This document shows positions 35,421-50,935 of a stretch of 64,000 bases of DNA, in pieces. Source of the DNA: a phage. Every line of letters starts with the position of its first letter. The stretch's first letter is position 1. The DNA is taken from sequence record OZ335964.1. The stretch is one strand, 5' to 3'. A program made the position numbers and the translations under genes. Under the pieces are notes generated by a model, which did no database searches, had not been told where the DNA came from, and saw nothing but the letters and a program-made list of their open reading frames with translations.

Positions 35421-36221
35421 TTACACGCGAGCACCGTAGATCGTGCCTACTTTATCCCAGCGAGGGGCATTGCCAGTAACAGCCTTACCAGCTGCACCAG
35501 CACCACTGGCATTATAGTTTGATGTACGAACGGCAGCACCACCAGCCGCACCAACGTTACCACCAGCACCACTCATGTTATTACCATCAACGGTTACTTT
35601 ACCACCTGCGGCGGTTAACGATGCATTACCACCATTACCACGACCACCACGACCACCTGTACCGAAAGGACGACCACCACCGCCGCCTGCAACGCCAGCT
35701 AATGTGAAGTTATAGTCTATGGACCATCCGCCGCCGCCACCGCCACCGCCAGCAATTGCACCATTATTCGTAATACGTAAGCGTGTACCGATGCCATTAT
35801 TGATCGCTGTACCCCCGGCGGTCGCACGAACTAAAGCATCTCCAGATCCACCACTAGACCCAGATCCGTTACCGCCACGACCATATACAGTGACGCCGGA
35901 ATTAATGATAAGAGTTACATATTCATTAGTTAATGAGCTAGGGAAATCCAGACACGGAACACCAGCAGAATTAGAAACAAGATCCCCGGTAATAGTAACT
36001 ACTACCGGAGTAGACCCCTGTGATTTTAGATAGTTAATCAGAGTATCTTTATTGTAGTTGTGGTTTGCACCAATGCTATAATGAATCTCTTTAGAGCGTC
36101 CGACCATCGCCGACATATACGCCGGACGACCTAAGCGAACAGCTTGCATTGCGGCGCTCATCCACCGTTGACCAGTCTCAGCAACAGCCGATGATCCTAC
36201 CCAACCTGCTTTAATTGCCAT
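35421..36221 (-). CDS. glycine-rich protein resembling T2-type gp38 tail-fibre adhesin
   Basis: 266 aa; N-terminus WVGSSAVAETGQRWMSAAMQAVRLG...IGANHNYN...VVVTITGDLVS...VYGRGGNG then poly-Gly runs (AIAGGGGGGGGW, GGGGGRPFGTGGRGG), C-terminal WDKVGTIYGARV; matches my recollection of gp38 adhesin architecture. No alignment run. Confidence 0.5.
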   Translation of the reverse strand: MAIKAGWVGSSAVAETGQRWMSAAMQAVRLGRPAYMSAMVGRSKEIHYSIGANHNYNKDTLINYLKSQGSTPVVVTITGDLVSNSAGVPCLDFPSSLTNEYVTLIINSGVTVYGRGGNGSGSSGGSGDALVRATAGGTAINNGIGTRLRITNNGAIAGGGGGGGGWSIDYNFTLAGVAGGGGGRPFGTGGRGGRGNGGNASLTAAGGKVTVDGNNMSGAGGNVGAAGGAAVRTSNYNASGAGAAGKAVTGNAPRWDKVGTIYGARV

Positions 36222-36497: not shown

Positions 36498-36575
36498 TTT
36501 TGATTCTCCTAGAAAGTGTATCTCGTTTCGATGGGTGTATTATGCAATAACACCGGATCGCTGTCAACACTTTCT
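36498..36575 (-). promoter_or_regulatory. early promoter-hairpin-leader cassette (PeSL-like)
   Basis: TTGACA - 17 nt - CATAAT within GGUGUuAU/AUaACACC hairpin - leader CAUCGAAACGAGAUACAC - AGGAGAATCAAA-ATG. Confidence 0.6.
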
Positions 36576-37751: not shown

Positions 37752-37812
37752 TTTGGTTCTCCTTTGTTGTCGATGTGTGCATTATGCTATACCCTATTCT
37801 TGTTGTCAACAC
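37752..37812 (-). promoter_or_regulatory. sigma70-type early promoter with conserved leader
   Basis: TTGACA - 17 nt - CATAAT (GCAUaAUGC mini-hairpin) - leader - AGGAGAACCAAA-ATG. Confidence 0.6.
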
Positions 37813-37814
37813 CT

Positions 37815-37846
37815 AAAAACGAAAAAAGCCACCCTTTCGGATGGCT
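37815..37846 (-). terminator. rho-independent terminator (possibly bidirectional)
   Basis: AGCCAUCC-GAAA-GGGUGGCU then UUUUUUCGUUUUU on minus strand; plus strand also has hairpin + TTTTG. Confidence 0.65.
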
Positions 37847-37855
37847 TTTGATTAA

Positions 37856-39994
37856 TTAAGGATTTCGGCCAGGGTAATGCTTAAATCGACCGTAACCAGT
37901 TTCAATGCTCATATCTCGTTGACGCACAATCGCCCAATAACCGTTGCAGGAATCTTGAAGATATAGATCCTTACCTTTTAGGAACTCATTAAAAATAGTG
38001 ATCTGCCAATCATAATAGACCGCATCAGCAAGACTACCCATCCAACCGTGCGGATCTTCCATCAGTTCGACAAGTTCATCAATTACCCAATATGGACAAG
38101 GGCTAAATTTACCCTTACTAAAATCGCTGAACATAGTAACGATCTTGACTTCCGGTCGAGGCTGATCGGGAATATCTGGACGTTTGTTAACTACGACTTG
38201 CACATATTTTGTGTAGCCTACAATTTCACCTTCATCTAAGTTAGTGTTATTGTTTTTGTCGGCAAATGCAACAAATTTGTAAACACCAGAATCATTTAAT
38301 GTTGCATTAGCTTTACGATATACCGGAACACTGGAATCTGCAATAGGTAATTTAATACCACTTTTACTAAATTCATAGGTCGGCACATAGTTAGATGGCG
38401 GTTTAATCATGGTTGCTTCCAGCACCAACGGATCACCCTCAGTAATTTGCACCGGATGCGGACCGTCAAATTCCATATTAGGAATTACTTCAACTTTATA
38501 GGTTGCACGTCCTGCAATATCATATCCGGTATGCGCACTATGAGGATCTCGGCTAGGACTATCGCGATATTCATGCGACCAGATACCATTATGTTCTTTA
38601 TCCGCCGCATCAGTGATCTTATATTCTTTCGTTTCAATCGGCAATTCTGTTACAAGAACATCGTTTTTCAAAATTGCTAACGAACGAGTTTGAGTCGGAT
38701 CATTACTTGCTGGAGGTTCTGGATCAACAATTTTAATAACAATAGGTTCCCCAACCTCAATACCGCTATAATCATGCTCGACGTCATAGATATCTAACAT
38801 ACGGCGATCATAAAATAACGGGCGAGAAGTTGGAGTTCTCTGCGGATCATCATCACGCGCAGGAGCTACCAACAATTGCAGGGCTACACTATTATCATAT
38901 TGCAATTTCTCAAGACTAATACGGTCATAACCAGGATCACCATATTTCTTGCTTTGTAATTGCGTACCACCTAACATCCACGTAAAGTAGACATTATTTG
39001 TTAATAAACCATAATGTCGGTTCCATGAATTATCAACAGGGGAAACTGGCATATCAATACTAACAGAAGACCCAGAAGGATAACGAAATTCAATAGCAGA
39101 AAAATCTCGGCTAAAAAATTCGTTTTCCTTGACGTTAACGCGGAATCGATGGCGCTGACCTTCCAGATACGATTCACTACTACCAGGACCATTTTCAACC
39201 TTATAGGAACGAATACAAGCGACATAATCACCTGCATCTGCTTCGGTAGCATGTTTCGTCACATATAAAGTTTTATTCTTTGATTCATAAACCAAAGTAC
39301 CATCGCCACGTTCCAGACGATAACGAACTATGGTATGTTCAGCGTCATTTGGGGCATCGTCTTCTACAGTATAATAGGCAGGTGCATATTTTTGTACATT
39401 GAATACAGCTAAATTTTCTCGAATTGTTGCTGTAAACGGATATACAAATTTAACATCACCTGTTTCGTCGCTTAATTCCATTCGATAAAGACCGGAAAAT
39501 TCAGGCCATGCGAATTTTGCAATTTTAAATTCACGATGGTCCAATCCCAAATCACCATCTACGGAATCAACTAGACCATTATTATAATACAAGTCAACAG
39601 AGATATTAGCAGGAATATTACTACGAAAAACAATTTTCGCTTTAAGTTCATCACCAATATTAAATGATGTCGGAGGATATACATGTTCAACATATGGATT
39701 ATCAAATAACTTAAATGTAAAGTTTTCCGTGCCAATATCGATAGAATCACCACTAAATGATGTGTCGCCTAGCGCATAACCTCGAACGTTTACAGACCAT
39801 CCGGTAACATCGTCTTCTTTAACGGAATCCAATGTAAATGTCGGAGAGGCACTTGTTGCTATAATCTGGTCATTTTTCTTCCAGACATAACCTTTTTTCG
39901 GTTTTGTTGAATCAGGGCTTTCATCAACAATACAGCAGCTAAAATCGTGCGGCATCCAAATCATATTATTGACCGTGGTGTTTACTACTGCCAT
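37856..39994 (-). CDS. large beta-rich protein with Ig-like motifs (712 aa)
   Basis: At least two Ig-domain-type D-x-G-x-Y motifs (EADAGDYVACIRSY; LNDSGVYKFVAF); rich in N/D/Y/T; no catalytic motif recognised. Confidence 0.5.
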   Translation of the reverse strand: MAVVNTTVNNMIWMPHDFSCCIVDESPDSTKPKKGYVWKKNDQIIATSASPTFTLDSVKEDDVTGWSVNVRGYALGDTSFSGDSIDIGTENFTFKLFDNPYVEHVYPPTSFNIGDELKAKIVFRSNIPANISVDLYYNNGLVDSVDGDLGLDHREFKIAKFAWPEFSGLYRMELSDETGDVKFVYPFTATIRENLAVFNVQKYAPAYYTVEDDAPNDAEHTIVRYRLERGDGTLVYESKNKTLYVTKHATEADAGDYVACIRSYKVENGPGSSESYLEGQRHRFRVNVKENEFFSRDFSAIEFRYPSGSSVSIDMPVSPVDNSWNRHYGLLTNNVYFTWMLGGTQLQSKKYGDPGYDRISLEKLQYDNSVALQLLVAPARDDDPQRTPTSRPLFYDRRMLDIYDVEHDYSGIEVGEPIVIKIVDPEPPASNDPTQTRSLAILKNDVLVTELPIETKEYKITDAADKEHNGIWSHEYRDSPSRDPHSAHTGYDIAGRATYKVEVIPNMEFDGPHPVQITEGDPLVLEATMIKPPSNYVPTYEFSKSGIKLPIADSSVPVYRKANATLNDSGVYKFVAFADKNNNTNLDEGEIVGYTKYVQVVVNKRPDIPDQPRPEVKIVTMFSDFSKGKFSPCPYWVIDELVELMEDPHGWMGSLADAVYYDWQITIFNEFLKGKDLYLQDSCNGYWAIVRQRDMSIETGYGRFKHYPGRNP

Positions 39995-40015: not shown

Positions 40016-40414
40016 TTAAGCCAGTCGAGTGAGTTTATAAATTGTTTTAAAGCATAAAACTTTAATATCGTCTAAAACGCTCTGCAAAGAGCTATCAACA
40101 TCATTATAAATCTCACTAGCCATTTGCGTTAATTCCTGCAAATAGGCAATTTCGTTAATCTCCTTACGGACGACCAACGTTGGTTGATACCGACCAGTGA
40201 TCCCAATATTGGTTTCTGTGAAATTATCAACCAATTCTTGCATTTCAAGATAGAACTCTTCTAGAGCCTTATGTTTTGAATAAGACCCAGGTCCAGTTAC
40301 CCCAAAATGCGCAGAATGCATATAAGTAACGCTCATTAGGCATTCACCAATAAAGCGGTCTACTTTATTAGCTTTTCCTCCCTCGGAAGTCTGCCTAAAT
40401 TCACTGAATTTCAT
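40016..40414 (-). CDS. hypothetical protein, possible ferritin/Dps-like fold (start at internal Met)
   Basis: Segment YMHSAHFGVTGPGSYSKHKALEEFYLEMQELVDNF loosely resembles the Dps helix-A/B signature; weak. Confidence 0.3.
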   Translation of the reverse strand: MKFSEFRQTSEGGKANKVDRFIGECLMSVTYMHSAHFGVTGPGSYSKHKALEEFYLEMQELVDNFTETNIGITGRYQPTLVVRKEINEIAYLQELTQMASEIYNDVDSSLQSVLDDIKVLCFKTIYKLTRLA

Positions 40415-40700
40415 TATATCGATTCTCCATTTTATTAAGCACAATAAATTGATTTGCGGCATACTCTCCCATCATGAAACAATGTTTAGCATCCATACAT
40501 TTACTACGTGCGTATGTTTTCATTATGTGGTCATGAAATTTTTGACTTGTCTCCACCGATGGTTGTATTTTGTTTATATACACGATCATAGCACCGTCGA
40601 AGTAATCAGTAAAGTCACCAACAGGACACTGATCGGCACTTACGCTACCAACTGCCATAACGCATATACCCGCAACGAGTGTTTTACGAATAAATGACAT
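40401..40700 (-). CDS. rI: lysis-inhibition antiholin RI-like periplasmic protein
   Basis: 99 aa with N-terminal signal-anchor (LVAGICVMAVGSVSA); C-terminal ...QKFHDHIMKTYARSKCMDAKHCFMMGEYAANQF... parallels recalled T4 RI (...EQFYSFMRTTYKNDPCSSDFECIERGAEMAQSY...); adjacent to tk as in T4. Confidence 0.65.
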   Translation of the reverse strand: MSFIRKTLVAGICVMAVGSVSADQCPVGDFTDYFDGAMIVYINKIQPSVETSQKFHDHIMKTYARSKCMDAKHCFMMGEYAANQFIVLNKMENRYNEIQ

Positions 40701-40732: not shown

Positions 40733-40740
40733 TATTTATA
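40733..40740 (-). promoter_or_regulatory. late promoter TATAAATA upstream of rI
   Basis: Exact T4 late consensus on minus strand ~33 nt upstream of the rI ATG, inside the loop of a 9-bp inverted repeat (40711-40747). Confidence 0.5.
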
Positions 40741-50188: not shown

Positions 50189-50248
50189 TTTGGTCCTCCC
50201 GTTTCGTTGATGGTTGTATTGTAGGGGAGTTATCCTCCCCTGTCAACA
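50189..50248 (-). promoter_or_regulatory. early promoter-hairpin-leader cassette (PeSL-like)
   Basis: TTGACA - GGGGAGgauaaCUCCCC (17-nt spacer hairpin) - TACAAT - leader - GGGAGGACCAAA-ATG. Confidence 0.6.
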
Positions 50249-50254
50249 CTTTTA

Positions 50255-50440
50255 TCAGAAATATGCAATATAGTTTGCCAGTCCTACAGAGTCATCATTC
50301 GGCATTGCTTTTACCGCCAGTTCAAACCCTGCTTCAACTTTCTGTTTAGCGGATTCTTCGTTATAACCCCAGATGACCAGAATAGCTACTACGTTTTCTT
50401 TGCTTACTGCTTTCAGTGCTTTAGTGATGCGACGTGCCAT
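50255..50440 (-). CDS. hypothetical protein (61 aa)
   Basis: Downstream of promoter cassette 50441-50517. Confidence 0.4.
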   Translation of the reverse strand: MARRITKALKAVSKENVVAILVIWGYNEESAKQKVEAGFELAVKAMPNDDSVGLANYIAYF

Positions 50441-50517
50441 AATTTGATTCTCCGTTTAAGAAAGTGTGTTTCGTTTCGATGGGTGTATTATGCTATAGGC
50501 GTGATCTGGTGTCAACA
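50441..50517 (-). promoter_or_regulatory. early promoter-hairpin-leader cassette (PeSL-like)
   Basis: TTGACA - ~17 nt - CATAAT/ATAATA - leader CAUCGAAACGAAACACAC - GGAGAATCAAA-ATG. Confidence 0.6.
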
Positions 50518-50540
50518 ACTTTTTTAAAAAATTTTAGGCA

Positions 50541-50569
50541 ATAAAAAAGCCACTCCGAAGAGTGGCTTA
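50541..50569 (-). terminator. rho-independent terminator
   Basis: AGCCACUC-UUCG-GAGUGGCU followed by UUUUUUAUU on minus strand. Confidence 0.6.
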
Positions 50570-50575
50570 TAGGGA

Positions 50576-50716
50576 AGGTAGCGAATCTTCCTTGTCTCCA
50601 ACCTGCTAGCGGCCTAGCAAGTGAATGCTTTAGCGTACCGGATCACCCCATACGCTGCAATAAATGCGGCTAGGTGACGTCCAAATCATTCTAACCGCGC
50701 TGTCTTTAGTTCACTA
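50576..50716 (-). ncRNA. candidate small structured RNA (ORF-free 140-nt interval)
   Basis: No ORF on either strand; several compact hairpins (GGAAG...CUUCC; GCUAG-gccg-CUAGC; GCGUA...UACGC; GCGGUUAG...CUAGCCGC); a terminator lies just downstream on the minus strand; T4 carries tRNAs/small stable RNAs at the syntenic e-57B interval. No tRNA T-loop signature found. Confidence 0.3.
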
Positions 50717-50935
50717 TTATTTATATCGCTTTCTCTCGCGACGTTTTTGATCTTCTTCCTTGATAGAGTTAAATGCATCAAAAAGACACATGACACTGAT
50801 AATGAACATAACCGTATTTTCTACGATATCCCACGGCTTCGCATCAGTACAGATCCCCCAAACGGTAAGAAATGCAAATAGTGCAGAAGAGATCACAAGC
50901 ATGATACTTGCTAAGATATAAAAAGTCATTTTCAT
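50717..50935 (-). CDS. small membrane protein (72 aa)
   Basis: Two TM helices, basic C-terminus. Confidence 0.4.
   Translation of the reverse strand: MKMTFYILASIMLVISSALFAFLTVWGICTDAKPWDIVENTVMFIISVMCLFDAFNSIKEEDQKRRERKRYK

Follow-up and report, generated by a model that had tools for sequence, protein, structure and literature searches.

The 64,000-nt stretch of phage DNA analyzed here (record OZ335964.1; hereafter the window) carries on its minus strand an open reading frame (ORF) of 712 codons. The predicted protein (80.8 kDa, isoelectric point (pI) 4.9) is 100% identical to JK32_00086 of Shigella phage JK32 (MK962753.1; Krischvirus, RB49-like), where it is annotated as 'hypothetical protein'; a window position equals the JK32 position minus 11595. 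JK32 also has two tandem canonical hoc genes after inh (JK32_00169, 408 aa, and JK32_00170, 846 aa; JK32 109926-113742, L003:14927-18743, outside the window), which would make the ORF a third Hoc-type gene. We consider it likely that the ORF encodes a virion decoration protein, namely a divergently anchored Hoc-type fibre on the JK32 head, the third of its kind in this phage. The gene and its parts are as follows.

37856..39994, minus strand: the 712-aa ORF, ATG start, 712 codons
37856..37858, minus strand: its stop codon, TAA
39999..40005, minus strand: its strong Shine-Dalgarno sequence, AAGGAGG, read directly from the sequence
38186..39994, minus strand: six tandem immunoglobulin (Ig)-like beta-sandwich domains, codons 1-603, predicted from AlphaFold2 (AF2), Foldseek, weak Pfam matches and BLASTP
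37859..38179, minus strand: proline-rich linker and divergent Hoc-type C-terminal domain, codons 606-712, assigned by hhalign, a hidden Markov model (HMM), PHROG 1149 and phmmer

Domain architecture of the 712-residue protein

A preliminary description of this DNA, made from its letters, had placed a beta-rich ORF with Ig-like motifs at this locus. The ORF is there, and it is the largest among the complete ORFs of the window. The AF2 model, for which 16 homologues with identities of 43-100% were aligned, has a mean predicted local distance difference test score (pLDDT) of 79.7, with residues 1-603 mostly at 75-94. Across this region the model contains about 50 strands, in agreement with the beta-rich character claimed earlier, and they form six Ig-like domains of about 100 residues each (approximate limits 1-97, 98-190, 191-290, 291-400, 401-504 and 505-603). 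A Foldseek search of the PDB returned multi-Ig proteins, including Ig1-6 contactins, sidekick and DSCAM (E 1e-18 to 1e-10), with six-Ig contactin fragments as the best match (E 5.6e-18). By model and structural search, the Ig-like folds anticipated in the description are present in six copies. Of the D-x-G-x-Y motifs, of which it had claimed at least two, exactly two are seen, DAGDY at 253 and DSGVY at 568. In the model, each lies on the F-strand of an Ig-like domain (domain 3 and domain 6, respectively), and at least two such motifs arise in just 2% of protein shuffles.

Sequence searches of the same region gave weaker signals of the same kind. The Pfam matches to Ig_3 and Ig_2 are weak and sub-threshold, and the Ig region resembles that of the 846-aa JK32 Hoc (BLASTP, E 2e-6). 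PHROG 3995, a family of Ig-bearing tail proteins, is matched by Ig-like domain 6 alone (residues 509-576, E 3.8e-4); both canonical JK32 Hocs match this family too, via their Ig domains, and the PHROGs search revealed no tail-specific domain in the 712-aa protein beyond the Ig-like domain. According to the model, the N-terminal part is a fibre-type string of six Ig-like domains. An enzyme or another curated family was considered and rejected, as Pfam and NCBIfam contain none for this protein; the PADLOC defence models were outside the search. No catalytic-domain match was obtained (Pfam, sub-threshold Ig only; NCBIfam, none; PHROGs, Hoc and Ig only), so the earlier statement that the protein lacks a recognizable enzymatic motif agrees with all three collections.

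The C-terminal part leads to Hoc. The full protein matches PHROG 1149 ('Hoc-like head decoration') with an E value of 4e-6 at the C-terminal end of the profile. When residues 606-712 are searched alone, this family is the sole match among 38,880 (E 7e-5), again at the C-terminal end. Against the same profile, T4 Hoc scores 1e-124 and the two JK32 Hocs 3e-78 and 3.5e-52. A phmmer search of PDB sequences aligned residues 609-687 with residues 284-361 of T4 Hoc, in its capsid-binding domain (5vf3_Z, E 0.033), and in a tblastn search residues 501-686 matched a Klebsiella phage gene annotated as hoc (E 4e-6). Pairwise BLASTP against the two canonical JK32 Hocs detected the anchor at just E 0.012-0.15.

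Profile comparisons gave much stronger scores. With hhalign, the profile of the family C-terminus aligned to four canonical Hoc C-domains with 96.5% probability (E 7e-10), and to 45 diverse Hoc C-domains collected from IMG/VR with 96.8% probability (E 2e-10); these alignments span 62-64 columns. In the reverse direction, an HMM of the 45 domains gave the C-terminus of the JK32 ORF 33.9 bits, compared with no more than 9.8 bits for any of 5000 shuffles. Judged by these sequence comparisons, the C-terminal domain is homologous to the capsid-binding domain of T4 Hoc (residues 281-376). The hint in the preliminary description that the protein is of a virion decoration type thus gains substance, with six Ig-like domains followed by a domain of this homology.

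[quoted passage not shown] In the AF2 model, predicted helices at 634-646, 648-653 and 662-672 are followed by strands at 677-680, 687-691 and 696-700, an order compatible with the Hoc fold but of low confidence (pLDDT 35-65 in the full model, 64.8 for the domain alone). A Foldseek search of the anchor model against the PDB returned nothing significant. A homologue search with the T4 Hoc C-domain returned 13 short fragments, which were used to widen the AF2 alignment, and a full-family locus search of IMG/VR gave pattern matches with no locus confirmed.

The anchor is about 25% identical to that of T4 Hoc, and we compared the two using the residue roles assigned in the published structure of T4 Hoc (PMC10385173). 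Cys633 corresponds to Cys307, Tyr635/Trp636 to Trp309/Trp310 in helix 1, Asp639 to Asp313 and Glu640 to Glu314. The loop at the capsomer centre is also kept, with D681-S682-C683-N684-G685-Y686 in place of T4 Hoc E355-S-R-N-G-Y360. The anchor retains two motifs, YWVxDE at the start of helix 1 and DSxNGY. Residues Y635-W636, D639, E640 and D681-Y686 are invariant in the 16 homologues, except for position 683 (Lys in the homologue P0016). The family also has a C-terminal tail of its own, AIVRQxxMSIETGYGRFKHY, which is invariant and about 25 aa longer than that of T4 Hoc.

Transcription unit and neighbouring features

The ORF is preceded by tk, rI and rI.-1, and the unit to which it belongs is delimited by the following features.

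40733..40740, minus strand: T4-type late promoter consensus TATAAATA, exact match, 32 nt before the rI ATG
40401..40700, minus strand: rI antiholin gene, first cistron (Pfam PF24205 Antiholin, E 1e-20; annotated rI in JK32)
40016..40414, minus strand: rI.-1 (DUF5856), second cistron (Pfam PF19174, E 2e-20), its stop 21 nt before the ORF start
37814..37849, minus strand: intrinsic terminator, the stem-loop half of a promoter/stem-loop cassette (PeSL), with an 11-bp stem, 5 G-C pairs and a T-run; it ends the rI/rI.-1/712-aa ORF unit
37781..37809, minus strand: sigma-70-type early promoter TTGACA-17-CATAAT, the promoter half of the PeSL, belonging to the next unit

The preliminary description had pointed out that the ORF is co-oriented with early genes, and tk, rI, regB, vs and the nrd genes do lie on its strand. 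It had further stated that the ORF has no late promoter of its own. This is correct for the sequence directly before the ORF, but an exact TATAAATA heads the rI operon at 40733-40740, one of three exact sites in the window. Six plus-strand copies in the JK32 structural region all lie 20-38 nt before start codons (of gp22, gp23, an ORF, gp24, uvsW and gp51), a geometry that the site before rI shares and which indicates that the motif so placed marks real late promoters in JK32. Our scan found no terminator-like site between the promoter at 40733-40740 and the ORF start. Within the ORF, a weak hairpin with 3 G-C pairs (39324-39299) is the only flagged site before the strong stem-loop at 37849-37824. 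The terminator at 37814..37849 is almost identical in Phi1 and RB49, and in a relative of 62% identity (L056) a hairpin terminator and an early promoter likewise follow the homologue. PeSL stem-loops have been shown experimentally to be effective transcription terminators in RB49 and phi1 (PMC2839356).

The arrangement is conserved. The order tk, TATAAATA, rI, rI.-1, homologue is kept in metagenomic relatives at 62% and 43% identity, with rI, rI.-1 and the ORF in the same order in loci L055-L058. The gap between tk and rI holds a single TATAAATA site in L055, L056-58, Phi1 and T4, and in each of the metagenomic loci no other copy is present. In T4, the late promoter lies between tk and rI.1; it drives the rI operon together with an early promoter located 3.3 kb upstream (PMC2962797). 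T4 hoc, tk and rI share one strand. Because T4 hoc and the dual-promoter rI operon lie on the strand of the early genes, strand is no indicator of timing; in this genus, moreover, the block that holds the ORF also includes the gene for the gp38 adhesin. The anomaly raised earlier, a decoration-type protein whose gene sits among early genes and lacks a late promoter, disappears once the ORF is seen to close the rI operon as its last cistron, with a conserved late promoter at the head of the unit and probable expression both early and late. We propose that the ORF is expressed late and, as in the T4 rI operon, probably receives early read-through as well.

Two candidates for a nearer promoter were rejected, as neither has conserved evidence: a TATAAA-like string at about 40035, with two mismatches to the late consensus, immediately before the ORF, and a weak sigma-70-like match inside rI.-1 (40132-40103). 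Neither canonical JK32 hoc gene has an exact TATAAATA upstream; AATAAATA precedes inh.

Further features of the window concern the same signals. A cassette consisting of a terminator hairpin, GTTGACA-N17-CATAAT and a conserved leader (ACACCCATCGAAACGA...) is repeated on the minus strand at 37781-37849, 36539-36567, ~50480-50570 and ~50215-50255. These copies match the PeSL cassettes of RB49 and phi1 (PMC2839356), and the unit described above is bounded on its 3' side by one of them. A gene for a gp38 tail-fibre adhesin (T2/T6-type, with glycine-rich motifs) lies at 35421-36221 on the minus strand, alone on the early strand and far from the other tail-fibre genes. It is annotated as gp38 at this position in JK32 and Phi1, and before it we saw no exact late promoter, just a hairpin and the preceding PeSL unit. 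A second exact TATAAATA (50718-50725, minus strand) lies across the stop codon of a small ORF, and the roughly 170 nt of non-coding sequence after it end in an intrinsic terminator at ~50540-50570. The stretch 50535-50725 (minus strand) folds at -65.6 kcal/mol (z = -3.6 against shuffles). Rfam contains no match for it, and a small RNA expressed late is one possible reading.

Distribution of the gene and readings of its function

Among 59 Krischvirus records that match the locus, the full gene is present in 6, and 53, including RB49, Phi1 and JSE, have the flanks only. Phi1 retains a remnant (L004:3899-4210) in which about 22 N-terminal codons are joined to about 66 C-terminal codons with frameshifts, part of it annotated as ORF084.1. 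The RB49 remnant (L060:586-830) is also frameshifted, and it consists of a different set of fragments with other end points. A 118-aa metagenomic ORF (P0017) represents a further remnant, fused to an unrelated N-terminal sequence. Since the end points differ, the gene appears to be ancestral to the group and to have been lost by internal deletions. Such repeated loss fits a non-essential decoration protein with an accessory, environment-dependent role, and the gene seems to be dispensable, like hoc.

Where the gene is present, its full-length frame is intact in 16 protein clusters of 43-100% identity, with 193 invariant columns overall. The C-domain has a mean pairwise identity of 85%, the Ig domains have 58-74%, and variability is highest in the N-terminal one; toward the most distant homologue the values are 74% versus 31-53%. 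In JK32, about 5 kb of extra ORFs lie between gene 23 and gene 24 (JK32 101397-106447, L003:6398-11448, outside the window). This block is preceded by TATAAATA and includes proteins of 572 aa and 614 aa, the latter annotated as 'tropomyosin-like'.

We propose a model for a third Hoc-type fibre. The protein would be synthesized late from the promoter before rI, with an additional early contribution by read-through. Its C-domain would dock on gp23* capsomers after capsid expansion, in the manner of T4 Hoc at the hexamer centre, and the six Ig-like domains would project about 30 nm outward, when scaled from T4 Hoc with its 18 nm and four domains (PMC10385173). Such fibres may let virions adhere weakly to surfaces or glycans, or may help them stay dispersed. 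Capsid sites might be shared with, or competed for by, the two canonical Hocs of 408 and 846 aa.

Several observations weigh against this assignment. Tyr293, His295 and Arg300 of T4 Hoc (VHPxPxR), which contact gp23*, and Arg357, which shapes the gp23-binding loop through Asp313, are highly or well conserved in Hoc (Fokine et al., PMC10385173). The anchor has no equivalents of these four residues; those aligned are Ile618, Thr620, Phe625 and Cys683. The VHPxPxR motif was found in 44 of the 45 collected Hoc C-domains, the exception being L053. In view of the missing residues we class the protein as a divergent variant and not as a canonical Hoc, although these residues are no formal definition of the family. 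When the C-domain profile of the family was run against 1.84 billion representatives, it returned its own family and one 118-aa remnant, and no canonical Hoc at E<=1e-3; the homology is thus shown through the profile-profile comparison and the reverse HMM. Read-through from upstream early promoters is possible, so that the timing would not be purely late. Finally, we found no virion proteomics of Krischvirus phages carrying the gene in the literature.

With these contact residues replaced, an altered mode of binding has to be taken seriously. The divergent anchor, with no VHPxPxR or Arg357, a Cys633/Cys683 pair and a C-terminal extension, may define a second class of Hoc-type anchor with a binding mode or site of its own, which we regard as a speculative idea with a modest chance of being right. 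In that case JK32-type phages would display three fibre types at once without competition, and the expression of one of them would be wired to the rI lysis-timing operon instead of the head-gene cluster. Unlikely, in our view, is a protein that is virion-associated at a different site, with its anchor retargeted to another capsomer position, to vertex-proximal hexamers, to the neck or to the tail, and hence not competing with the canonical Hocs. The loss of His295, Arg300 and Arg357 would agree with such retargeting, as would the features particular to the family (Cys683, apart from the Lys of P0016, and the invariant 25-aa extension), the failure of the subfamily profile to reach canonical Hoc, and the fact that the hexamer sites can already be filled by two canonical Hocs. 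However, the anchor keeps DSxNGY, the central loop that contacts gp23, and YWVxDE, where helix 1 starts, the accepted Hoc-like domain of L053 likewise does without His295 and Arg300, and PHROGs revealed no similarity to tail or neck proteins beyond generic Ig domains.

It is unlikely that the protein is an intracellular, non-virion factor of the rI lysis-inhibition or superinfection module, with Ig-like domains at work within the infected cell and a Hoc-like domain used otherwise than for capsid binding. The shared operon with rI and rI.-1, conserved in all homologues examined, and the probable early transcription of the unit by analogy with T4 (PMC2962797) would speak for such a role. Yet RI acts in the periplasm (PMC2962797), and the N-terminus of the 712-aa protein has no visible signal peptide or hydrophobic segment and is modelled as a beta-strand of domain 1. 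Moreover, all 53 Krischvirus records from which the gene was lost still have rI and rI.-1, which argues that the lysis-inhibition module does not need it, and the architecture, charge and conservation gradient match Hoc. A lysis-inhibition role was therefore rejected as the principal explanation, given the lack of an export signal and the persistence of the rI genes without the gene. Finally, a decaying, functionless hoc paralogue heading for loss is highly improbable: internal deletions removed the gene from most Krischvirus genomes, but the intact frame, the nearly invariant C-domain and the strong Shine-Dalgarno sequence are signs of purifying selection wherever it is present and argue against a pseudogene.

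If the protein is a third Hoc-type fibre, a probable function is assigned to a protein listed as hypothetical in every retrieved record, and some RB49-type coliphages would carry three Hoc-type fibres. Hoc anchors serve as display platforms in phage engineering. Should its binding chemistry differ, the divergent anchor could be used as an orthogonal tag for display and could help to show how paralogues divide capsid decoration among themselves.

Comparison with known Hoc-type systems

The closest reference is T4 Hoc (highly immunogenic outer capsid protein; PDB 5vf3_Z, 8t1x; PHROG 1149). Both proteins have a string of Ig-like domains and a C-terminal domain that aligns over Hoc residues 284-361, and they share C-x-[WY]-W-V-x-D-E and [DE]-S-x-N-G-Y. 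Both are acidic, Hoc having a pI of about 5 (PMC10385173), and the 712-aa protein resembles Hoc in being apparently non-essential and in being encoded on the 'early' strand behind a late promoter. They differ in the number of Ig-like domains, three in T4 Hoc and six predicted here, and in location, as T4 hoc lies between inh and gene 24 whereas the ORF adjoins rI and rI.-1.

The canonical Hocs of JK32 and RB49 type (PDB 3SHS for the N-terminal domains of RB49 Hoc) are built on the same general plan as the 712-aa protein, and the JK32 pair is encoded in its own genome. The anchor motif of the canonical JK32 Hocs aligns at the matching relative position in the 712-aa protein. However, the pair carries the standard YVHPIPWR...ESRNGY anchor, which the 712-aa protein does not, and its genes are at the inh-hoc locus, about 60 kb from the ORF.

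A decoration protein at the hexamer centre is also known from T5, where pb10 occupies this position (PMC5292684). Among Ig-bearing head decoration proteins (PDB 5lxk, 8zvi), pb10 has an Ig-like domain that is weakly similar to Ig-like domain 6 of the 712-aa protein (E 0.39-0.77). No similarity to the capsid-binding domain of pb10 was found in the 712-aa protein, whose anchor is of the Hoc type.

Other arrangements of the Hoc domain were seen among T4-like loci of IMG/VR. In L039, L041, L042 and L045-L054 the Hoc capsid-binding domain is N-terminal and other modules are C-terminal. Several of these proteins are encoded near the genome start of phages that also have a canonical hoc, as noted for PG7 by Fokine et al.

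Phages with several Hoc-type proteins have been described, including Serratia phage Muldoon with Hocs of ten and two Ig domains and Enterobacter phage PG7 with a Hoc anchor fused to a GDSL lipase (PMC10385173). JK32 resembles them in having more than one Hoc-anchor protein per genome and a variable number of Ig-like domains (PMC10385173). The proteins of Fokine et al. 2023 were found by BLAST with the T4 anchor and hence have canonical anchors, while the family of the 712-aa protein is too divergent for such a search. In contrast to the Muldoon and PG7 cases, the third copy of JK32 is in a separate transcription unit. Since phages with several Hocs and variable Ig numbers were already known, the kind of system is familiar, and what is added is a modest extension with no new mechanism. 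Together, our comparisons suggest that what is new is a previously unannotated subfamily of divergent anchors that ordinary searches fail to link to Hoc, and a third Hoc-type copy that lies outside the hoc locus, is attached to the rI operon and has been deleted recurrently in relatives.

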